A DNA stretch of 57,924 nt from an uncultured Bacteroidales bacterium (GCA_900319925.1 ONQE01000026.1:1-57924), one strand, 5' to 3'; counted from the first letter of the stretch, positions 4,798 to 15,030 are shown. Made by a program: numbers and translations. Notes: generated from the sequence alone by a model not told the origin.

Positions 4798-5175
4798 CTA
4801 TGAAATGACAATATCAGTGAAATACTCATAATGTAAATCCATACAATCGTTGTAGTAAACGAGTTGTCGGGGAACATGTGTCTTGAACGGACCATGTTTC
4901 ATACAATACGCTGCTCTTGTGATACGCTCTCGCAAAGCGATGCCATTTGGATCCTTTTCCAAATAATCAACAAAAGAGTCTGCGTCAGTATAATTGAGAG
5001 ACCTTAAGATTTTGATCTCTTCTTTCTTCATCTGCTTCTCAATATTGCTGATAAAAGTGTTTTTTGTACCGTTGTCGCTAATATCCGCATCGTAGAAAAC
5101 CTCGTCTTCGGTTTCCACGATGAATGCATCTTTAAGTTTATCTATCAATTTATACTTTCCAACCATAATATTCAA
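4798..5175 (-). CDS. Hypothetical protein (125 aa; start may be a few codons in)
   Basis: AT-rich ORF, co-oriented with the cluster, protein-like composition; no family recognised. Confidence 0.65.
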   Translation of the reverse strand: MNIMVGKYKLIDKLKDAFIVETEDEVFYDADISDNGTKNTFISNIEKQMKKEEIKILRSLNYTDADSFVDYLEKDPNGIALRERITRAAYCMKHGPFKTHVPRQLVYYNDCMDLHYEYFTDIVIS

Positions 5176-5286
5176 AGGACTTCTATGTTAAACAATTCAA
5201 TCGTTTCATTATGCCTTTGCGAAGTCCGTTAGACAAAAACACGATGATGACGATACACTGACAGTACTTTTTTTCTATGTCGGCTG

Positions 5287-5329
5287 ATTTTGAAAAAGTG
5301 GGGCTTTCGAGACCCCACTTTTTCAAAAT
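5287..5329. terminator. 17-bp perfect inverted repeat, terminator-like, downstream of the glycosylase fusion
   Basis: attttgaaaaagtgggg-N9-ccccactttttcaaaat. Confidence 0.6.
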
Positions 5330-5348
5330 GACAAACGGTTTAGTTGTC

Positions 5349-6536
5349 CTATTTTTTGAAGCCAAGCGCTTCCTTCCATCCTTCCAATTTTTTCTCGAAG
5401 GACATCGGATAGGCGTTGCTTGTGGAGGGAGCGGTCGCACACTTCTTTTCAATCTTGAAATGCTCTTCAAAATCCTTGAATGTTTTCTTGCCGTTGAACA
5501 CGAGAAGATCAATGGTTTGATGCTCATTCAGGAACCCTTCGAGGTTATTGTAAACCACATTCTTCATATTCTTGTCCGCAGATCCCTCGCGCTCGCACTG
5601 ATGCGCAAGATCCCACACGGCCACCTTGTTGGCTTTCAGGCATTCCTCCTTCTCATTGTAGTTTTGGAACTTTTTGCCCTTATTGTAGATTTGTTCCATG
5701 AATTTCCAGAAGCTGTTGGTGTGGGAAGCATAATATTCGCCGGTTTCGAGGGATTTGTTTCCGGGCATAGTGCCGAGAATGAGAATCTTAGGCTCATCGC
5801 CAACCAATGGATTCAGGCCTGTTATTTCATTACCGATGATTATTTCCGTCTTTTCCTCCGTCACTTCTTCCGTATATTTCTTGGGAATATATTGCTGGAA
5901 AGAAGCAGACAGTTCGTCTAACCACAAATCATAGAAGAATGCCTTTGCTGTGTAAGCAAAACACTTGTTATACAGCTTCTCTGCATCTTCGGTCAACTCA
6001 TTGTCTTCATCCTTCTCCCATGGGGATTCGTCAAAATTGTCCATTAACGTGTCCCACAAGTATTCTTGGATTTCCTCCTCATTAGTCTCATTTTCAAAAT
6101 CTATATCTGTAAAGAATTCACCGTCAATATTTTCGTACACTTTGGCATCCGCTTCTGATGTTTGTCCGAAAAGGACGGCTGCTTGCATCCAAATAATCAA
6201 TTCTTTACCATACTCGGTAGCCGTATTGAAGATTTGCACCATAACATTCAAATGATTTTCGAGTGCATAATTTTGGCACAACTCCAAAATATCCTTTTGC
6301 GCTTTTGGGAAAGGAGAACCTTCGGGGATGGAATATTGCTCACCCCAAAGGTGCTCATCTGTGTCATAATAACTTAATTTAAAATCATCCGCATAACGAA
6401 GATCACCATATTGGAGCTTTTTGATTCGCTCTTCCAATTCTGTTTTTATCCTGAAACGCCTCTCTTTGGGGATTATATTCATTTTGTCGTCCAAAAAAAG
6501 GATTTTCCATTCATCACAAATATCATGTAAAGCCAT
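5349..6536 (-). CDS. Fusion of an unknown acidic N-terminal domain and a C-terminal UDG-superfamily DNA-deoxyinosine (hypoxanthine) glycosylase
   Basis: C-terminal ~160 aa has PKILILGTMPGNKSLETGEYYASHTNSFW, VAVWD, CEREGSADKNM, VFNGKK and APSTSNAY, matching family-6 HDG/MUG-like motifs. Confidence 0.85.
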   Translation of the reverse strand: MALHDICDEWKILFLDDKMNIIPKERRFRIKTELEERIKKLQYGDLRYADDFKLSYYDTDEHLWGEQYSIPEGSPFPKAQKDILELCQNYALENHLNVMVQIFNTATEYGKELIIWMQAAVLFGQTSEADAKVYENIDGEFFTDIDFENETNEEEIQEYLWDTLMDNFDESPWEKDEDNELTEDAEKLYNKCFAYTAKAFFYDLWLDELSASFQQYIPKKYTEEVTEEKTEIIIGNEITGLNPLVGDEPKILILGTMPGNKSLETGEYYASHTNSFWKFMEQIYNKGKKFQNYNEKEECLKANKVAVWDLAHQCEREGSADKNMKNVVYNNLEGFLNEHQTIDLLVFNGKKTFKDFEEHFKIEKKCATAPSTSNAYPMSFEKKLEGWKEALGFKK

Positions 6537-6643
6537 ATCTTACGCGATTACCTATACATCGCAAGGTTCTAAATAATAGGATCCATATATGAACTATAGT
6601 GATCACCAGCAGGAACCCTTTAACCGGTGCCACAGTTTTTGCT

Positions 6644-6871
6644 CTATTCTTCTGTCAATTCAATGTTTGTTGAAGAGCGGATGAGGATAGACTGCTCTGC
6701 AGGAATGATGCAGACAGGAAGCAGGTGTCCGTTTGTGCGCTCACAGATTCGATATAGGTTATGCTTCAGCACCACAACCATCTCTGTTTTTGAATCCGTT
6801 GTTCCGAAGAAGCGTGTGTATTGCCTGTCCGTCACCTTCACTCCGTCTGCAAATGTTTCTATGATGACCAT
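6644..6871 (-). CDS. Small hypothetical protein (75 aa)
   Basis: Co-oriented ATG-start ORF in the AT-rich cluster. Confidence 0.5.
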   Translation of the reverse strand: MVIIETFADGVKVTDRQYTRFFGTTDSKTEMVVVLKHNLYRICERTNGHLLPVCIIPAEQSILIRSSTNIELTEE

Positions 6872-6971
6872 CCGAATAAATACTGTTTATTGGTATTAGA
6901 CTGTTATTACATATTATGGCATAAATATACGCCACAACAGAGTGTTTTTAACAAACCCAAAAAACAGGAGA

Positions 6972-7172
6972 CTATTTGTCTTTGTTGATAAAATCGATGA
7001 GCTTGTTTCCGAACTGACGGACAGTCCACTCCTTGTCGTATTCGAAGCCGACCTTTGCCGCTATTTCACGAAGAGCCGCCGTAGAGTTGTCATAAATGCG
7101 ATAGACCACGATGCTTCCGCTTTCTTCCTTTTGGATGATGTATTCACCCGAAATTGCTGATTTTGCTGCCAT
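6972..7172 (-). CDS. Small hypothetical protein (66 aa), first gene after the operator-bearing promoter
   Basis: MAAKSAISGEYIIQKEESGSIVVYRIYDNSTAALREIAAKVGFEYDKEWTVRQFGNKLIDFINKDK, preceded by an AT-rich translation-initiation region. Confidence 0.75.
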   Translation of the reverse strand: MAAKSAISGEYIIQKEESGSIVVYRIYDNSTAALREIAAKVGFEYDKEWTVRQFGNKLIDFINKDK

Positions 7173-7193
7173 AACTGTATGTTTTAAATTATT

Positions 7194-7283
7194 AAGAACG
7201 CCGTGAAATCCCTCTTCGGTGATTTCACAGCGCAAAAATAATATGTTAACCGATTGGCGGCTTGGTCCGAATTGGTCCGAATT
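7194..7283 (-). promoter_or_regulatory. Operator/promoter/leader-hairpin block, copy 1
   Basis: GGTCCGAATTGGTCCGAA at 7264-7281; -7 box TATTTTTG (minus strand, 7233-7240); hairpin GTGAAATC..GATTTCAC; 86/90 nt identical to 11751-11840. Confidence 0.8.
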
Positions 7284-7286
7284 TAC

Positions 7287-7379
7287 TCACTCCCGCTCCT
7301 GCCGCACCTCTGTCAACCCGCCTTTGTTGCCGACCACGAAGAGCGTCGGGACGTTGTTGCCGTGCACGAAGTTGTCGAG
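7287..7379 (-). pseudogene. Duplicated 3' end (30 codons + stop) of the regulator gene 13422-13994
   Basis: 87/93 nt identical to 13422-13514; reads LDNFVHGNNVPTLFVVGNKGGLTEVRQERE* versus LDNFVHGNNAPTLFVVGNKGGLTEVRRERE*. Confidence 0.9.
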
Positions 7380-7522
7380 ATTATCCCTTAGTAACCTGAA
7401 CTTTTGTAGAGAATACATAAAACTGTCCTATAACACGTTCCTCATGTTTTATATATTTTTCTTCATCATCTATAGGGAAAAGCGTAAATGCCACCACACC
7501 ATTCTTTTTGTGTAAGGTAGGT

Positions 7523-10500
7523 TTAATCCTTGAGGCAGCGAACGGAATAGCCCTGGTTCTTGCTGTTGGTAATGCTGGTTACGTAGGCGCTATTGTAGAA
7601 GAGGTGGCGGCGGTACGCGTCAAAGCCACTGGACTCGGTAGAACTCCAAAAGACGGCGGTGTAGCCGAAATTGCAAGAACCATTACCATTGATGTAGAAG
7701 CCCGCAGGCAACGCCCCGAAACATGTGGCGTTGTTGCTGGACGGCATGTTGCCCACATCACATTGGTTTTCACTGTAAGTCCATCCTGTGGTTGAGGCTA
7801 ACGCCTTGGCGACAAAGTTGTTGTTGTTGCCGCACAGATAGTTGCTCTGGCTACTGACATGGTTTTCCAGTTCACTCCACTCCGCGTCGCTTGGAACGTG
7901 CCACCCGTTGGGACATATACCCAGCACGCCGGAGGGAGAGGCATTGCTGGAAGAAGCCCCATGCATTACCGCAGCCCAGTTGTAAAGATAACCGTGTGTG
8001 GAAATAGTGCTGCTGCTGTTTGCTGGATAATAATAGAAATAATAGGGGTAGGCTGTTGAGGAGGAACTACCTGAAGATAGGGAAGTGCCATCCGCGTAAT
8101 GCGTAGTGCGGAGATTCTCCTGCATCCAGCACTGGTTTCCGATTTGCACCGTATTATAAACGTTTCCGTCATAGTCAGTGACAGTAGGTGTGTTAGGGCA
8201 AGAAACTTGTTGATTTGTCATGAAACTCACCTGGTTGCCATACGCCGTGCCCGCGTTGTTTGTGGCGTAGGCCCGCACATAGTAGGTGGTGTTTTGAGAC
8301 AAATCGGTAACACTGCTGGTAAAGGTGCCGGTACCGTTGCCGTCGGTGGTATGGTTGTTGCTTACCGTAGGGTTGGGCGAAGTACTCCAACACACCCCGC
8401 GGGCGGTCACAGATACACCGCCGTCAGCGGTCACGTTGCCGCCACAAGTGGCGGAGTTGGTTGTGATGTTGCTGGGCGCAGCGGTGAATACGGTGGGAAA
8501 GGAGACAAAAGTGGTGTCTCCACCACCTCCCGTCTCGTCTTTTATGCAACGGACGGAATAGCATTGTCGTATGCTGCCGAAACTCAATTGCCAGTAGATA
8601 TTGTTGGAGTAAAGGCTGAAGTCATAGAGGTATACTCCATACGAATCATCAGAATGTACGGTAGCACTCCAAAAGTGGGTGTCGCCACCGACAGCGTTGT
8701 AGCCGTTGTAGCTATAGTAGCCAGCGGGAAGGGCTGAAAAGCCCGTGCCGTTGTTGGCAGAAAGATCGTTGCCTATCACGCAGTAGCCATTCTCGGTGAT
8801 CCATCCCACCGTGTCCGCCAATGCCTTGACGATACTGTTTTCGTAACCGCATAAATGAATGCTTTGGCTACTCACAGAATCGGCCATTTGCTCCCACTCC
8901 ATTTTACTAGGCAAATGCCACCCAACGGGGCAGATGCCCCTGCGGTGGCCAGTGAACGTCACCGACATCTGGTTAGCGGGATCTGTATTCACACTTGTCT
9001 CCCCAAACATTGTATTGAACGTGTCCACCGCCGCATACCAGTTGTAGAGCAATCCGTATTTCATCGGGGCATACGTGGCGGATTCGTTGTTGTACCAGCG
9101 TGCCTGCTTACCCGTGTACGTACATACCGAATTGACATCCGGAATAAGGTAAGTTCCAGTACTCGGCGAAGTTGTGGTACGCAAATTTTCCCTCATCCAG
9201 CACTGGTTTCCGATCAGCACGGTGTTATAGACGTTGCCCTCATGGTCAGTCACGGTTGGAACACCAGGACAAGGAAGACCACCCTGTCCAGTGGTGCCAG
9301 AAGTGGTGGTAAAAGGCCATTGTTCCCCGTATGACGTACCCAGACTGTTGGTGGCATACGCCCGCACGTAATAGGTTGTGTTAGCGGCAAGCCCCGTGAT
9401 ATTGCTTGTAAAACCGCCCGTGCCACTGCCATCCGTGGTATGACTATCATTAAGGGTAGGATTATGCGATGTACTCCAGCACACTCCACGGGAAAAGACG
9501 GTATCGTTACCATCAGCTGTTACAGTTCCGCCGCAGATGGCAGAAACAGAAGAAATGCCAGTAGCAGGATTAGTGATGACTTGTGGCAAAGTCTGGTTGC
9601 TGCCAACACCGAGAACACAACGGACTGAAAGCCCTGAATTCTTATAACTCGAGTTACCACTTATGTATGTGTTGTCGGCAGACAAGTACTGGGAGGATGC
9701 ATAATCAACAGAAGTACCATTGGAAGTCCAAAAATAAGCGTATTGGCCTGCCCCATAGAGGCCTGCCCCTTGGAATCCCAAACTGTACCACTCACCTGCC
9801 GGAACGGCCGAAAAACCGGTAGCATTGTTTGTGGACGGGCTGTTGCCTATAGCGCAACTGGTGGAACTATTTTGCCATCCCGTTGTAGAAGCCAAAGCCT
9901 TAGCGATAGAATTATCACATTGGTACTGGCTTTGACTGCCCACATAAGAACTCAATTGCCACCATTCATCAAGGCTGGGAACATGCCACCCAGTAGGGCA
10001 GATACCTTGAATACCACTTGGATTTGCATTAGAGGAACAAGCATTATGCATCACAGCAGGCCAATTGTACAGATAACCATAACCTAGCTGTGCCTGATAC
10101 GAAAGGATGTAATAGTACGGCAGAATATAGCTGCCTTCACCACTCATGTTGCCTACTGGTATGGACACACCATCGGCATAATGCGTGGTTCGCAGGTTCT
10201 CTTTCATCCAACATTGGTCACCAATCTGCACGGTATTGTAAGTGTTTCCGTCAATGTCGGTGAGGGTTGCGGCATTTGGGCAAGGCTGCCCATCCATAGA
10301 CAAGGTCGTAAAACTCACCACATTTCCATACGCTGTCCCTACACTATTGGTGGCATACGCCCGCACATAATAGACTGTGTTTGCAGCCAACCCTGAGATG
10401 CTGCTGCCAAAACTGCCGGTACCGCTGCCGTTTGAAGTGTGGCTGTCATTGAGAGTTGGGTTCTGTGAAGTACTCCAACATACACCTCGTGCCGTGACAG

Positions 10501-11602
10501 GAGCAGCCACAACACTGTTCACATAGTTGTTCCCGCAATAGGCTGAGTTTCCTGTAACGTTGCTCACCGTACCCGTTGTTACCTCTGGTAAAGTGGCTGA
10601 TGTTGTGAAACTCACCTCGTTGCCATACGATGTGCCCACACTGTTTCGGGCGTATGCCCGCACATAATAGGTTCTGCCGGCATAAAGTCCAGTCAAACTG
10701 CTGGTGAAAGCACCCGTTCCGCTGCCATTCGTAGTATGGTCACCGCTAATAGTTGGGTTATGCGACAAACTCCAGCAAACACCCCTTTCCGTAACGGCCG
10801 CACCGCCGTCACTGGTTACGTTGCCGCCGCAAGTGGCTGCGTTAGACGTGATGCCACTTACTGTATTGGTGGAGACTGTTGGCATGTAGTATATTTGCGT
10901 TTCCGCAAACTGCAATGTGAATAATTGCGACGATCCCTGCGCTTGTGTGATGCGCTGGCTCTCCGCTTCCGTGTTGTTAATGAAGGCATAACCCACATAT
11001 TCCATTTGGTCGCCGAAATTGAAAGGATTGTTAGTGCTGGATTTCAACACGACGGTAATGGTCTGTACCATGCCAAGATAGTCTAATGTGTTGCTACCAC
11101 CTCCGCCGTTGCAAATCATCTTGATGGAGGATGTCTTCCCATTCTGGCGGGCGGTCATCACGTAAGTACCCGCGGTGGACAAGGAAATGCGGAATTGATG
11201 ATTTCCCGGTTGTAGAGATACAAGATTTTGTGTCTCTATGATGCGTCCATTCATATCCTTGATGTCCAAATCAACCTTGCCTTCATCCACTGTTGTCAGG
11301 CTCACCTCAGTAGTGCCACTGAAGGGGTTTGGATTGTTCTGCGACAGAACGAATCCGCCGTCCAAAGTGTGGTCGTCAATGTCCGTGCCGTTCTGCATAG
11401 TCAGCACCGTGTCGGGCCAGTAAATGGTCTCCTGCCAGCTCTTGGTCAGATTGGTTATGATAACCCTGTTAAGCTGCACATAATGGTTTGCAGCGTCCTT
11501 TGCGGTGAAAGTGAGGGTGACGGTCTGGGCGGCCAATCCGAAGGATGCAGCCGCTAAAATAAGAAATAAAAGCCCTTTTGGGCAGATATTCTTTTCTGTC
11601 AT
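7523..11602 (-). CDS. Secreted 1359-aa surface protein: signal peptide, N-proximal T9SS-CTD/FlgD-like domain, 4 FN3-like repeats, 3 Fib_succ_major (FISUMP) domains
   Basis: LAAQ signal cleavage; LSQNNPNPF..DMNGRII..AGTYVM; repeats of CGGNVT.DGG..V..RGVCWS..YYVRAYA.N..GT.YG; three D.DGN.YNTV.IG.QCWM.ENLRTT..G.LYNW.A..ICP.GWH.PS..FW..SVRC domains. Confidence 0.9.
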   Translation of the reverse strand: MTEKNICPKGLLFLILAAASFGLAAQTVTLTFTAKDAANHYVQLNRVIITNLTKSWQETIYWPDTVLTMQNGTDIDDHTLDGGFVLSQNNPNPFSGTTEVSLTTVDEGKVDLDIKDMNGRIIETQNLVSLQPGNHQFRISLSTAGTYVMTARQNGKTSSIKMICNGGGGSNTLDYLGMVQTITVVLKSSTNNPFNFGDQMEYVGYAFINNTEAESQRITQAQGSSQLFTLQFAETQIYYMPTVSTNTVSGITSNAATCGGNVTSDGGAAVTERGVCWSLSHNPTISGDHTTNGSGTGAFTSSLTGLYAGRTYYVRAYARNSVGTSYGNEVSFTTSATLPEVTTGTVSNVTGNSAYCGNNYVNSVVAAPVTARGVCWSTSQNPTLNDSHTSNGSGTGSFGSSISGLAANTVYYVRAYATNSVGTAYGNVVSFTTLSMDGQPCPNAATLTDIDGNTYNTVQIGDQCWMKENLRTTHYADGVSIPVGNMSGEGSYILPYYYILSYQAQLGYGYLYNWPAVMHNACSSNANPSGIQGICPTGWHVPSLDEWWQLSSYVGSQSQYQCDNSIAKALASTTGWQNSSTSCAIGNSPSTNNATGFSAVPAGEWYSLGFQGAGLYGAGQYAYFWTSNGTSVDYASSQYLSADNTYISGNSSYKNSGLSVRCVLGVGSNQTLPQVITNPATGISSVSAICGGTVTADGNDTVFSRGVCWSTSHNPTLNDSHTTDGSGTGGFTSNITGLAANTTYYVRAYATNSLGTSYGEQWPFTTTSGTTGQGGLPCPGVPTVTDHEGNVYNTVLIGNQCWMRENLRTTTSPSTGTYLIPDVNSVCTYTGKQARWYNNESATYAPMKYGLLYNWYAAVDTFNTMFGETSVNTDPANQMSVTFTGHRRGICPVGWHLPSKMEWEQMADSVSSQSIHLCGYENSIVKALADTVGWITENGYCVIGNDLSANNGTGFSALPAGYYSYNGYNAVGGDTHFWSATVHSDDSYGVYLYDFSLYSNNIYWQLSFGSIRQCYSVRCIKDETGGGGDTTFVSFPTVFTAAPSNITTNSATCGGNVTADGGVSVTARGVCWSTSPNPTVSNNHTTDGNGTGTFTSSVTDLSQNTTYYVRAYATNNAGTAYGNQVSFMTNQQVSCPNTPTVTDYDGNVYNTVQIGNQCWMQENLRTTHYADGTSLSSGSSSSTAYPYYFYYYPANSSSTISTHGYLYNWAAVMHGASSSNASPSGVLGICPNGWHVPSDAEWSELENHVSSQSNYLCGNNNNFVAKALASTTGWTYSENQCDVGNMPSSNNATCFGALPAGFYINGNGSCNFGYTAVFWSSTESSGFDAYRRHLFYNSAYVTSITNSKNQGYSVRCLKD
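11212..11239. repeat. GTAG-type REP-like 28-bp palindrome inside coding sequence (encodes IETQNLVSLQ)
   Basis: gtagagatacaagattttgtgtctctat; its minus strand matches the intergenic copy at 46476-46503 at 20/28 positions. Confidence 0.65.
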
Positions 11603-11661
11603 ATTGGTTTATTTTGTTGATGAATTATTCTTTTGTTATTAATTGAAATTGTTGTTTTCAG

Positions 11662-11743
11662 CTGCTTAGGTGTGCAACCGCTTTCCTCAAAGAAGGCGCG
11701 GCCTGTCTTTGTCGTCAAAGAGGTTCTAGCAAAACCCAAGCAG
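11662..11743 (-). ncRNA. Candidate structured cis-regulatory leader RNA (multi-stem junction)
   Basis: Minus strand: CUGCUUGGG/CCUAAGCAG closing stem enclosing CCU-CUUUG(ACGA)CAAAG-AC-AGG and CCGC..GCGG hairpins; lies in the 5' leader of the 1359-aa gene. Confidence 0.45.
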
Positions 11744-11750
11744 AAAAAAA

Positions 11751-11840
11751 AAGAACGCCGTGAAATCCCTCTTCGGTGATTTCACAGCGCAAAAATAATA
11801 TCTAAACCGATTGGTGGTTTGGTCCGAATTGGTCCGAATT
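11751..11840 (-). promoter_or_regulatory. Operator/promoter/leader-hairpin block, copy 2
   Basis: GGTCCGAATTGGTCCGAA at 11821-11838; -7 box at 11790-11797; hairpin followed on the minus strand by GTTC-T9. Confidence 0.8.
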
Positions 11841-11850
11841 AAGGGTGCTA

Positions 11851-13293
11851 TCAGTCGAAAAGGTCGTCTAAGGTGACGCTGCATTGGATGACGGAGCTGT
11901 TCTTGCCCGGGACAATTCCGAACGTGGAGATCAGGGTGGTGAGGATGGTGGCGCGCGTTTTCACAGATTCCCTGAAGACGGCCACCTTTTGGCGCAACTT
12001 GTCCGCGTAGTCCTTGGTGATAAGAAACGGCTCGTTGGCGCAGAATTTGATCTCGCACAGGTTGATGGCCCTGTCGCCGCGTTCCAACACCAGGTCTATT
12101 TGAGCCCCGGCGTCTTGTGCATCCCGGTCCCACCAGGAGAACGCATTGCAAAGGACTCCGGAAATTCCCAAGCCGCGCTTGATTTGCTCCACATGGGTCA
12201 AACATATCAGCTCAAAAGTGAGACCGTTCCAGACCTGTGTCGCAGGGGTGTTGATGGTGTGAGACCAAAACCTCGGGTCCAGTCCTTCCTTCCCTTTGAT
12301 GAACTTCAAGTAAAACAAGGTGTAAAAATCGCACAGCCTGTATTTTATGTCTCTTTTCTTGTCCATGGAATAGTATGAGGAGATGAAGAAGCAGTTCTTC
12401 AGATCCCTGAGATAACGGCTGATGTCACCGCCGCATTTCTTGCCTAACAATGCGCATATTTCGGTCCGCGAATACCCTGCCTTTTTGCCGGCAAGAATTT
12501 CGATGATGTGCCTGTAGGTTTCCGGCTTTTTGAATAAGGAACTAAACAGCCGGTCGTATTCACCGGACAAGGGGGCACCCTGGCTGAAGAACAGCTCGTC
12601 AATGTTTTGCGCGAGACTTTTCCCTCGTTTCAGTTGTCGCAGATAGTAAGGGATGCCCCCCATCACCATATAGCAACGCAATATCTCGATTCTGTCGTAA
12701 GCGAAGCCCCGGCTGCTGAGATACGACTCCGTTTCAGACAGGGTGAAAGGGGATATCAACATCGGATGAGTGATGCGGTTGTACAAGCCCCCCGTGTTGT
12801 TGATGACGTTGTCGATGATGTATGAGGTGGCGGAACCGCAAACGATGAACATCAGATTGGATCTGTGAGCTGCCCAGTCGTTCCAGAAATGCTCCAATGC
12901 GGTGATGAATCCGGAAGAGGGAGTGTCCATCCATGGCAGCTCGTCAATGAAAACCACCTGCCGCTCTTGGTTGTCCGCATTGGTCAACAGGTCTTGGAGG
13001 TTGTTGAAGGCCTCAAACCAATCCGAAGGTTTCTCGTATTCCCGAATCCCATATTGATTCAGAGCCGTTTGGAAGTTTTCCAACTGCCGTTCCTTCAGGT
13101 TGATGTTGTCGGATTCGATTGGGGAGAGTCCTGTCACGCAAAAATCGAACCGATTTTGGAAAAAATGGTGGACCAAAAAGGTTTTCCCCACGCGTCGCCT
13201 GCCGTAAATTACGATGAATTCTGCCTCGCGAGAATCGTAATATTCTTGTAAATCAGTAAGTTCCTTCTTTCTTCCGATGATTTCTGCTGTCAT
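11851..13293 (-). CDS. AAA family ATPase (ATPase_2/archaeal ATPase type) with C-terminal PD-(D/E)XK-like domain
   Basis: IIGRKKEL, YGRRRVGKT (Walker A), VFIDELPW, IVCGSA, GGIPYYL, C-terminal AQIDLVLER..INLCEIKF. Confidence 0.88.
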   Translation of the reverse strand: MTAEIIGRKKELTDLQEYYDSREAEFIVIYGRRRVGKTFLVHHFFQNRFDFCVTGLSPIESDNINLKERQLENFQTALNQYGIREYEKPSDWFEAFNNLQDLLTNADNQERQVVFIDELPWMDTPSSGFITALEHFWNDWAAHRSNLMFIVCGSATSYIIDNVINNTGGLYNRITHPMLISPFTLSETESYLSSRGFAYDRIEILRCYMVMGGIPYYLRQLKRGKSLAQNIDELFFSQGAPLSGEYDRLFSSLFKKPETYRHIIEILAGKKAGYSRTEICALLGKKCGGDISRYLRDLKNCFFISSYYSMDKKRDIKYRLCDFYTLFYLKFIKGKEGLDPRFWSHTINTPATQVWNGLTFELICLTHVEQIKRGLGISGVLCNAFSWWDRDAQDAGAQIDLVLERGDRAINLCEIKFCANEPFLITKDYADKLRQKVAVFRESVKTRATILTTLISTFGIVPGKNSSVIQCSVTLDDLFD

Positions 13294-13421
13294 AATGCCC
13301 CTGTTTTATTTCTCCGCGAAGATACAAAATTTTTGTTCGCGGAGGAGTTTTAGGGGGTCGTTTTCCTCCGCGAACTGATTTTTTTTCGGTTCGTGGAGAT
13401 TTTGGCGGGGAGTGCTCGCCG

Positions 13422-13994
13422 TCACTCCCGCTCCCGCCGCACCTCCGTCAGCCCGCCTTTGTTGCCGACCACGAAGAGGGTGGGGGCGTTGTTGCCGTGC
13501 ACGAAGTTGTCGAGGTAGAGCGGCTCCCCGAGGATGAAGCAGGAACACGAAAAGGAATCGCCGGGCTTGAGCTTGGAGTTCTCGCTCTCCACCACCATGA
13601 AGCTCCCTTCGCCGAGATGGCGCAGCAGCACACGGCGGTCGGGCGACCAGGCGATGCGCACAAAACCCTCCTGCGGGATCTCGTCGGGATGCAGGACGCG
13701 GCCCAACACCGGGTTCGAGGATTCGCCCGCGCGGTCGTGGTTGGCCAGGAAATCGTCCCAGTCGTGAAAACCCACGCAACGGGCGAGGACCGAGAGGGTG
13801 GAGTAGCGGGTGGTGTCGTAACCCTCCACATAGCCCCAGATGCGCTTGAGGGTGGTCACCCCCAAGGTCTCCTTGCAGCGCTCCTGGATCACGCCGGTGA
13901 GGAACTGGAAGTCGGCGGGAGTCTTCATCTTGCGCGACACGGACTCCTCCACCATTTCGCGGAGTTGCAGGATTTCGGTTTCGTTGGGCTTCAT
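13422..13994 (-). CDS. Uncharacterised putative DNA-binding regulator (N-terminal HTH-like region, C-terminal beta-rich domain)
   Basis: Helical N-terminus TPADFQFL..LGVTTLKRIWGY..YSTLSVLARCVGFHDWDDF resembles an XRE-like HTH; its own promoter carries the repeated motif. The regulator function is inferred. Confidence 0.65.
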   Translation of the reverse strand: MKPNETEILQLREMVEESVSRKMKTPADFQFLTGVIQERCKETLGVTTLKRIWGYVEGYDTTRYSTLSVLARCVGFHDWDDFLANHDRAGESSNPVLGRVLHPDEIPQEGFVRIAWSPDRRVLLRHLGEGSFMVVESENSKLKPGDSFSCSCFILGEPLYLDNFVHGNNAPTLFVVGNKGGLTEVRRERE

Positions 13995-14013
13995 ACAGGA
14001 TTTTTTAGACGCG

Positions 14014-14061
14014 CAAAATTATAAAATTCAAACAACGGGAGACGGTCCGAATTGGTCCGAA
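14014..14061 (-). promoter_or_regulatory. Regulator promoter with operator copy 3
   Basis: -7 box TAATTTTG (14014-14021) and exact GGTCCGAATTGGTCCGAA (14044-14061); flanks are otherwise unrelated to copies 1 and 2. Confidence 0.75.
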
Positions 14062-14182
14062 CAATGACGCCGCTTCCCTTCACCTTCCTTGGAACCGTTC
14101 CGCGCGGCAAAAATACTATTTTTAAAGGTGAGATTTTTTTTTTCGAAAAAAATGTAACCTTTTTGATTTTTTGCATCTGTAT

Positions 14183-14339
14183 AGTGAATGGTGAATTGTG
14201 ATTAGTGTGATTAGTGAATTGTGATTGGTGAATTGTGATTGGTGAATAGTGATTGGTGAATTGTGATTGGTGAATTGTGATTGGTGAATTGTGATTGGTG
14301 AATTGTGATTGGTGAATTGTGAGTGAATTGTGATTAGTG
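14183..14339. repeat. Tandem repeat, 14-bp unit GTGAATTGTGATTG (paired heptamers), about 11 units
   Basis: Directly visible; no unique spacers. Confidence 0.95.
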
Positions 14340-14400
14340 CAATATTTTTGATGTGTTTTCGTTTAGTAGAATAGATATGAAGCGTTTTATAATTCGTAAG

Positions 14401-15030
14401 ATGATGAAAAAGAGTTTATTCCTGTTATTGTTGTGTGTGCCGTTCGGGATGGGGCTGTTTGCGCAAGGGGACGGCTCCGACTGGCGCCAGACGTTCAACC
14501 GGCACGAGTTCTCGCTCGCGGTCGGCGACCCGACGATGGCGAACAGAACCCGTATGGAGAAATTTTCCGGCAACACCATGACCTCCTGGTTGGACATTCC
14601 TACCTACACCGATGTCTATACTTCGGCGCCCATCACGTTGGGTTACCGTTTCCGGCTTCTGAAGTGGCTGTGGCTCGGCGGCGACATCACCTATTGCGGC
14701 TTCTTCGGCACCTCCCGCAACATCTATACGGAGGAACCGGTCTATAAGTATCGCGAAAATTCGGTGAGCATCATGCCCTCCATCCGCTTTTCCTACCTCA
14801 ACCGCGAGCACGTCACCCTCTACAGCGGTTTCACGTCGGGCTTGCGGATCGGTGTGGCGGAAGCCTACAACGAGAAGGACGTTTTTGTCCGGCTACCCTT
14901 CCAGGTGACCCTCTTCGGCGTTTCCGCCGGCAGTCAGAGCTGGTTCGGCTTTGCGGAACTCGGGGTCGGCTTCCAAGGATTCGCCAAGGCCGGCTTCGGT
15001 TACCGTTTTAACGGAAAGAAAAGACAATAA
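14401..15030 (+). CDS. Outer-membrane beta-barrel protein
   Basis: Signal peptide ending FAQ, amphipathic strands, C-terminal AGFGYRF; start re-called at MMKKSLF. Confidence 0.8.
   Translation: MMKKSLFLLLLCVPFGMGLFAQGDGSDWRQTFNRHEFSLAVGDPTMANRTRMEKFSGNTMTSWLDIPTYTDVYTSAPITLGYRFRLLKWLWLGGDITYCGFFGTSRNIYTEEPVYKYRENSVSIMPSIRFSYLNREHVTLYSGFTSGLRIGVAEAYNEKDVFVRLPFQVTLFGVSAGSQSWFGFAELGVGFQGFAKAGFGYRFNGKKRQ

Follow-up and report, generated by a model that had tools for sequence, protein, structure and literature searches.

What reads a short tandem repeat that stands, letter for letter the same, ahead of three promoters in one part of a Bacteroidales contig? The DNA in question is a stretch of 57,924 nucleotides (nt) from an uncultured Bacteroidales bacterium of the ruminant gut (GCA_900319925.1 ONQE01000026.1:1-57924), hereafter called the window, which is contig C70 of genome G000 (an assembly of 3.12 Mb in 252 contigs, 86.8% complete). 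A first-pass annotation of the window had noticed an 18-nt direct repeat at three promoters and ascribed it to the product of a neighbouring gene, a protein of 190 amino acids (aa), here P0001. From the comparisons set out below we think it likely that this protein belongs to a large family of small one-component regulators of the Bacteroidales, and that it works as a cluster-situated, autoregulating activator by way of the tandem repeat.

A tandem repeat upstream of three -7 boxes

A scan of the window recovered three exact copies of the 18-mer GGTCCGAATTGGTCCGAA on the plus strand, at the very places first reported (Table 1), and no additional match at up to three mismatches. The chance expectation is 0.09 matches, and none of 100 shuffled sequences held three or more. 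All genes discussed here lie on the minus strand, on which the 18-mer reads TTCGGACCAATTCGGACC; its structure is that of two half-sites in tandem direct orientation, TTCGGACC-AA-TTCGGACC, one helical turn apart. Across the whole genome the same three copies were found at up to two mismatches and still only three at up to three mismatches, with no match of the reversed control at either setting. The motif is thus not scattered over the genome. The term regulon, which had been applied to it, would here cover three local sites and no genome-wide set.

Copies 1 and 2 lie within a duplicated module of 90 nt (7194-7283 and 11751-11840, 96% identical), and their downstream flanks agree at 56 of 60 positions. 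Copy 3 has no such surroundings: its flanks, aligned in register with those of copies 1 and 2, agree at 14-20 of 60 positions, which is the chance level and bears out the claim that this copy has nothing else in common with the other two.

On the minus strand each copy is followed by a predicted -7 box, TATTTTTG after copies 1 and 2 and TAATTTTG after copy 3, with gaps of 23, 23 and 22 nt; boxes and gaps were again as first described. By their sequence the three boxes fit the sigma-A -7 consensus of the Bacteroidota, which appears as TAnnTTTG or TANNTTTGY in excerpts of two published accounts (PMC7366714, PMC12632263). When sites at up to three mismatches were pooled from the window and from 20 loci of other genomes, TAnnTTTG began 22 or 23 nt past the repeat at 32 of the 34 distinct sites. 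The promoter-proximal edge of the repeat lies 22-24 nt upstream of the -7 box, and the repeat as a whole roughly at -37 to -55 from the start site.

Repeats and regulators across genomes

Of 152 genomes belonging to the taxonomic family of G000, 68 hold a homologue of P0001 (E up to 1e-10) and 84 hold none. Among the 30 loci whose protein is at least 70% identical, 11 carry the 18-mer at up to three mismatches between -64 and -69 from the ATG, and weaker versions of the repeat are visible in several more; three of these loci come from another genus. The motif is therefore kept near homologues in other species and genera, as the first-pass annotation had expected, while its flanks diverge: in 15 distinct orthologue promoters the conserved positions are the columns of the repeat and the T-run before the box, and no others. 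Searched at up to two mismatches, the 18-mer gave 46 matches in 31 of the 152 genomes and its reversed control gave one. All 19 genomes with a match at up to one mismatch hold a homologue, and the four genomes with the motif and without a homologue have two-mismatch matches only. Some sites lie far from the regulator gene, at 12 kb in G044 and 74 kb in G049, and in G114, G122 and G126 they are on other contigs.

The genome G000 encodes two paralogues of P0001, on contigs C125 (45% identity) and C188 (37% identity), and each has a repeat in its promoter. The promoter on C125 carries AAGAACCGAAAAAGAACC, with a period of 11, and that on C188 carries AAATGGGCCAAAATGGGC, with a period of 10; both stand 24 nt before a box, TATCTTTG or TATTTTTG. 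Sixty more paralogue loci were gathered and a quick maximum-likelihood tree of 89 proteins was computed, on which the type of repeat tracks the clade of the protein: a repeat is present in 13 of 13 core rows for clade C, in 27 of 31 rows for clade B, in 13 of 27 for clade A, to which the repeat of the window belongs, and in 0 of 6 for clade D. The clade B word, AAGAACC-N4-AAGAACC, and the clade C word, AAATGGGyCAAAATGGG, occupy the same promoter position as the clade A repeat. Measured from the core of the repeat to the box, the gap is 22-23 nt in 13 of 13 cases for clade A, 23-24 nt in 13 of 13 for clade C and 22-24 nt in 23 of 27 for clade B; in the other four clade B promoters it is 32-33 nt, one helical turn further. 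A shift by one whole turn is the behaviour expected of an activator that must face a particular side of the helix.

These classes were drawn up with the sequences already in view. A class-free statistic, namely a best 8-mer self-match of at least 7/8 at a period of 10 or 11 between -48 and -19 from the box, points the same way: it picked out 44 of 85 family promoters and 25 of 782 promoter-like control sites of G000, and three of the eight perfect controls proved to be the three family genes. In a test of a prediction made afterwards, the exact 16-mer AATGGGYCAAAATGGG of clade C was present in 14 of 14 genomes that have a core clade C gene, compared with 4 of the 138 others. Allowing one mismatch brings in an appreciable background for this 16-mer, the reversed control then matching about ten times. 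Where a genome holds two to four exact copies of AATGGGYCAAAATGGG, they lie on the contig of the clade C gene. Extra copies of a locus's own word occurred in the gathered flanks of 14 of 43 loci. On C188 of G000 there are three copies of the clade C word within 2.4 kb, and on C125 a second, diverged copy of the clade B word precedes TACTTTTG by 23 nt, upstream of the genes for a 397-aa and a 1069-aa Ig-like protein.

The paralogue loci on C125 and C188 lie among genes for Ser/Thr kinase, HipA-like, AbiEii and ATPase_2 proteins, so that all three family genes of G000 are found in island-like, defence-flavoured surroundings. Elsewhere in the same genome, contig C127 (L119, 4054-4071, minus strand) has the perfect tandem repeat AGTTGTCCCAAGTTGTCC, whose distance from a -7 box is again the same and which precedes an AAA-ATPase_like/PDDEXK_9 gene. 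The neighbourhood of this site showed no gene of the 190-aa family; a different regulator with the same geometry may act there.

A profile search of 401 genomes across the order found full-length relatives of P0001 in several other families. It also picked up open reading frames (ORFs) of 785-895 aa, in 21 genomes of other families, that begin with the N-terminal 90-100 residues and have no other part of the protein. A search of the protein collection with residues 1-95 for longer proteins returned none; the long forms come from the genome search only. In three of the long proteins domains of the NACHT/STAND type matched below the curated cut-offs (NACHT at E 2.2e-4 in one of the three, NPHP3_N at E 0.00025-0.0048 in all three), and EruA NACHT was matched in part, at E 1.4e-5. 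The pattern [GT]GTCA-N4-[GT]GTCA, with a period of 9, occurs within 130 nt upstream of the gene at 10 of 23 long-form loci, compared with a background of 0.001 per 130 nt that was taken from a different genome, G000, for a pattern defined post hoc. The 23 loci are L132-L134 and L137-L156, and at the 10 with the pattern the TGTCA/GGTCA direct repeats are followed by a T-run. Short and long forms share the N-terminal domain only, and upstream repeats occur with both.

The 190-aa protein and how it may act

P0001 matched nothing in Pfam or NCBIfam. When 50 family members were compared with Pfam at E up to 1, only chance-level rows were obtained, with no HTH_3 and one HTH_6 at E 0.22, and the family profile gave no match among PDB sequences at E up to 10. 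Family members bear the name 'hypothetical protein' throughout the searched collections, and a Protein Atlas search with the whole protein led to 'hypothetical' clusters only; an RcgA-like cluster, found there among named clusters with residues 1-95, scored 0.78, below the level of a lead, and was dropped. The family is large nonetheless: it has 154 close clusters, and a profile search at 50% identity clustering returned 3261 clusters with E up to 0.001, 1516 of them with E up to 1e-10.

An AlphaFold2 model of P0001 (mean predicted local distance difference test score, pLDDT, 84) shows five N-terminal helices, a disordered linker (89-98) and an eight-stranded C-terminal beta domain (111-188). 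The helices of the N-terminal domain (residues ~5-85) span 5-18, 26-40, 46-52, 64-73 and 79-85. In a VIA-align 2 structure search with residues 1-91, the top 50 matches were mostly XRE or lambda-repressor-like (Z 4.2-5.8, root-mean-square deviation 2.7-4.8, 63-78 aligned residues), a range that the tool itself rates as non-decisive; among them were the POU-specific, HicB3, XRE-family, ComR, DdrO, ImmR, SinR, HipB and C.BclI domains. On this model, and with modest Z scores, the N-terminal part is a putative XRE-like helical DNA-binding domain. The earlier description of the protein as helix-turn-helix-like is compatible with the predicted fold and found no counterpart among sequence families.

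Foldseek found nothing in the PDB at E up to 0.001 for the full model or for the C-terminal domain. Modelled alone, the latter reached a pLDDT of 96.7; its best structural match was the PDZ-like part of MamP (Z 6.2; next best 4.7), Foldseek gave nothing at E <0.3, and there was no clear likeness to any solved fold. The suggestion of a WYL-type beta sensor was not supported by this comparison: no WYL match was found in Pfam, and Sm-like folds, at Z 3.4-4.0, scored below the PDZ-like one. The accompanying idea of a response to DNA damage or phage is likewise unsupported, since nothing in the analysis links the system to either. Prediction of a homodimer of the 190-aa protein scored 0.01, which gives no verdict and is counted neither way.

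We propose that the XRE-like N-terminal domain would read the tandem repeat of two half-sites, with two or more subunits lying head to tail on the half-sites just upstream of the would-be -33 element, and that the bound subunits most likely aid RNA polymerase in starting transcription in the manner of a class II-like activator. Three promoters would be switched on in this way: that of the regulator itself, which would amount to positive autoregulation, and two neighbouring ones, which would drive a FISUMP surface protein in one case and small ORFs with a UDG-like glycosylase gene in the other. The C-terminal beta domain is likely a sensing or oligomerising part, in place of which distant relatives would have a STAND-type NTPase. 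The claim that the protein binds the repeat, autoregulates and controls both neighbouring promoters has gained good comparative support. The motif, its spacing and conservation, its co-occurrence with the gene and the clade-specific repeats are observed; that the 190-aa protein is the binder, that it activates and that it senses a signal, we infer.

Several observations weigh against this proposal. Two of the three copies in the window, 1 and 2, belong to one duplicated module. About half of the clade A orthologues (14 of 27 on the tree) and all six clade D genes are without such a repeat, and the clade A cases in particular argue against a universal rule. Both the repeat classes and the pattern of the long forms were drawn up once the data had been seen, and relatedness among the genomes makes the counts overstate independence. 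The fold matches stay below Z 6 and may reflect a common helical arrangement, no solved structure having been reached by sequence profile. The helix TLKR(I/L)W (residues 48-53) is invariant across clades that have different repeats; specificity would then have to lie elsewhere, perhaps in residues 46-47, which differ between clades. Finally, a test for the absence of a -33 TTTG was uninformative, since control promoters of G000 also lack a clear -33 peak, and activation is consequently argued from position, that is, from the lack of overlap with the core promoter, the fixed spacing and the exceptions that lie one turn away.

The same position bears on whether the 190-aa protein might bind the repeat and repress, as an autorepressor that silences the neighbouring cassettes until a signal arrives. 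The evidence for binding is neutral on sign, many XRE-type proteins, which are the best fold matches, are repressors, and the locus resembles a variable island with a defence-type cassette, such islands being often silent. Repressor operators usually overlap the core promoter, however, and the operators of XRE dimers are usually palindromic, whereas the repeat lies wholly upstream of the -7 box and overlaps neither the box nor the start site. The gap of 22-24 nt recurs in three clades with exceptions about 10 nt off, a face-of-helix constraint typical of activators, and we therefore regard repression as unlikely.

We consider it quite improbable that another factor, be it a host regulator or an alternative promoter element, reads the repeat, and that the repeat merely travels with the 190-aa gene in a mobile or duplicated module. 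In many genomes the 90-nt module does recur, with >90% identity, in front of unrelated genes; G114, an 87%-complete assembly, combines an exact site with a homologue that is only 45% identical; and the C127 repeat shows the same geometry before an unrelated ATPase gene with no family gene near. A common host factor would nevertheless leave unexplained why three clades have each their own word and why the type of word follows the protein tree, the clade C word and clade C genes coinciding as described above; moreover, the regulators' own promoters share the repeat, and only the repeat, with the module. Least probable of all, in our judgement, is that the repeats are recombination sites, either cassette boundaries or sites of an Xis-like architectural protein, instead of operators. 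Close relatives are indeed rearranged at this locus, with the ATPase cassette present or absent, a regulator remnant by copy 1 and varied cargo past the module, and the stop codon of the upstream gene often stands just before the repeat. Homologous recombination between duplicated modules accounts for these rearrangements, though; no recombinase gene was found beside the loci examined with Pfam, and a recombination site would have no reason to keep a constant distance from the -7 box, as 32 of 34 sites do and as the repeats of the different clades do too. The 190-aa protein acting as an activator through the repeat remains our preferred explanation.

The locus, its island and known systems

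The features of the locus are collected in Table 1.

Table 1. Features of the locus, with coordinates counted from the first letter of the window
Feature	Coordinates	Strand	Remarks
Repeat copy 3 (TTCGGACCAATTCGGACC), candidate operator of the regulator's own promoter	14044..14061	-	begins 67 nt before ATG
-7 box TAATTTTG, regulator promoter	14014..14021	-	22 nt past repeat, 19 nt before ATG
190-aa regulator gene (P0001)	13422..13994	-	
480-aa P-loop ATPase, cassette between regulator gene and repeat copy 2	11851..13293	-	Pfam ATPase_2; PADLOC PDC-S27
Repeat copy 2, candidate operator ahead of FISUMP gene	11821..11838	-	
-7 box TATTTTTG	11790..11797	-	23 nt past repeat copy 2
13-pair stem-loop (11790-11755), then U-rich run (TTCTTTTTTTTTC)	11740..11790	-	-23.2 kcal/mol
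1359-aa surface-type protein, three Fib_succ_major (FISUMP) stretches and FN3-like repeats	7523..11602	-	ATG 236 nt past repeat copy 2
Remnant of second regulator gene, last 31 codons	7287..7379	-	ends 5 nt before repeat copy 1
Repeat copy 1, candidate operator ahead of small-ORF/glycosylase gene string	7264..7281	-	
-7 box TATTTTTG	7233..7240	-	23 nt past repeat copy 1
13-pair stem-loop, second copy, overlaps end of -7 box	7198..7233	-	
66-aa ORF, first gene past repeat copy 1	6972..7172	-	no family match; ATG 109 nt past repeat
75-aa ORF	6644..6871	-	no family match
395-aa protein, C-terminal 150 residues match DNA-deoxyinosine glycosylase (UDG superfamily)	5349..6536	-	
Tandem array, ~10 copies of a 14-nt unit, upstream of repeat copy 3	14155..14345	.	

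The stretch before copy 1 contains a feature that was missed in the first-pass annotation. Nucleotides 7287-7379 reproduce, at 94% DNA identity, the final 93 nt of the 190-aa gene (13422-13514), and copy 1 therefore sits just past the remnant of a second regulator gene. The same remnant is present in G009, as is the same 66-aa ORF past the repeat. In the related genome G043 the repeat directly follows the stop codon of the regulator, and this order together with the remnant points to an ancestral unit made up of regulator gene, repeat, promoter and target. The ATPase gene is an inserted cassette: in three of four runs RNA-library contigs join 13336 to 11885 without it, and in G043 a DUF4143 ATPase occupies the corresponding place. 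Over its full length the 480-aa ATPase matches PDC-S27, a candidate defence gene of PADLOC (E 3.6e-191); PADLOC gave no match for the regulator, the FISUMP gene or the small ORFs. Between the regulator stop and the ATPase start there is an imperfect 36-nt inverted repeat (13311-13399, 75% complementary), which is conserved in L009, L016 and L018.

Repeats of ~1 kb (families D1 and D3) occur within the FISUMP gene, and its product has a Por_Secre_tail-like stretch near the N-terminus (residues 91-163), not at the C-terminus. Fib_succ_major is mentioned in papers on diversity-generating retroelements. Past the gene for the 395-aa protein, further ORFs on the same strand include one for a UPF0227 esterase-like protein. 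The 14-nt tandem array, repeat family D2 of the window, probably does not belong to the operator. Comparable positions at homologous loci of other genomes are taken up by other short tandem arrays, whose units measure 7-14 nt.

In both copies of the module a 13-pair stem (-17 to -23 kcal/mol) has the last G of the -7 box as its first base, and a U-rich run comes after it. No pair is broken in any of 16 sequences, one pair being GC in nine, CG in six and GU in one, and G-U wobbles are common; the kept pairing, with its compensatory and G-U changes, argues that the feature is a structure of the RNA from this strand, not a protein operator. Since the stem starts inside the -7 box, it can form in full only in transcripts that arrive from upstream. 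The stem-loop may thus terminate transcription of the upstream gene, with the next promoter overlapping it, in which case each cassette would rely on its own activator-bound promoter; the role of a leader attenuator is an alternative. The regulators' own promoters lack the stem-loop, as do several diverged modules, and an Rfam search of 5000-15000 yielded two sub-threshold chance rows only, so that it corresponds to no known RNA family. A promoter and terminator scan of the sigma-70 type is unsuited to this phylum, and its limit on loop length missed the stem-loop.

The genes that follow the repeat in other genomes are diverse and mostly unnamed. They include FISUMP proteins, proteins of 738-936 aa of unknown family, TerB, GIY-YIG and PvuRts1I-like proteins and DUF4143 or ATPase_2 ATPases, and UDG-like genes lie downstream of the repeat in L047, L048 and L053. 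A UDG-superfamily gene past a repeat-linked promoter usually comes after a large unnamed protein. The repeat-bearing regions are variable islands. Sheep-gut RNA libraries yielded contigs for the regulator gene, for parts of the FISUMP gene and for 6400-7158; as these may include DNA, they speak for presence and not for regulation, and as contigs they give no start sites, strand or levels. An apparent 5' end at 7186, the end of a contig with adapter-like letters in one run, was too thin to call.

Most knowledge of transcription control in the Bacteroidota comes from hybrid two-component systems, SusR and ECF sigma/anti-sigma pairs, with a few classical families besides. Our literature search, with subscription journals and supplements outside it, turned up no description of the 190-aa family or of the repeat motif. 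What appears to be new, judging from sequence comparison, is a family of putative regulators whose candidate tandem-repeat operators differ from clade to clade and stand at a fixed place in the promoter, together with a form fused to a putative STAND domain. A family of at least 3261 clusters, nameless in the searched libraries, thereby gains a testable function, defined candidate operators and a predicted specificity code of three clades and three words. Operators of fixed spacing could serve as orthogonal, portable promoter/regulator pairs for Bacteroides engineering, and the link to variable islands offers a handle on how rumen and gut Bacteroidales switch on surface-protein, UDG-like glycosylase and defence-type cassettes.

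Several known systems resemble parts of this one, SARP/AfsR, lambda CII and PhoB coming nearest in function and architecture. WYL regulators have the same two-part plan, an N-terminal helix-turn-helix and a small C-terminal beta domain able to sense a ligand; the C-terminal domain found here is nearest to the PDZ-like part of MamP. Proteins of the XRE and lambda-repressor type furnish the best structural matches of residues 1-91, but P0001 has no HTH_3 match, and its candidate target is a direct repeat in place of the usual palindrome bound by a dimer. PhoB and OmpR bind head to tail on a pair of direct repeats with a period of 10-11 bp, which stand in for the upstream promoter element, and they autoregulate. 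They do so with a winged-helix output domain and a phosphorylated receiver domain, whereas no Response_reg or Trans_reg_C match was obtained here. Lambda CII, a helical helix-turn-helix protein of ~97 aa, recognises the direct repeat TTGC-N6-TTGC at -35 and activates intrinsically weak promoters as a lysogeny factor. It shares with P0001 the small helical protein and the direct repeat with a 10-bp period, but CII has no beta domain, its site straddles the -35 element, and no sequence similarity between the two proteins was found.

The SARPs of actinomycetes, small ones such as ActII-ORF4 and large ones such as AfsR, combine an OmpR-type winged helix with BTAD, and the large form adds a STAND NTPase. 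Here no Trans_reg_C or BTAD match was obtained, the model is five-helical and XRE-like, the phylum is another, and the promoters have a sigma-A -7 box. The likeness lies elsewhere: SARPs are cluster-situated, their tandem direct repeats of about one turn stand at a fixed distance upstream of the -10 or -7 element, they activate adjacent genes, as we suppose for P0001, and they occur in short and long architectures, with a STAND NTPase after the DNA-binding domain in the long one. Both architectures were seen here, with NTPase matches below threshold, and the gap of 22-24 nt and the neighbouring copies reproduce the tandem-repeat trait, which points to similar working and not to membership. As a speculation, and an unlikely one, the family might be the Bacteroidales counterpart of SARP and AfsR: a portable and so far unrecognised repeat-reading domain joined to a beta sensor or a STAND NTPase, with a private word for each paralogue that drives hypervariable surface and defence islands through a portable promoter module, the built-in terminator insulating the cassettes, so that a signal, perhaps phage or envelope stress, would trigger remodelling of the cell surface in rumen Bacteroidales.

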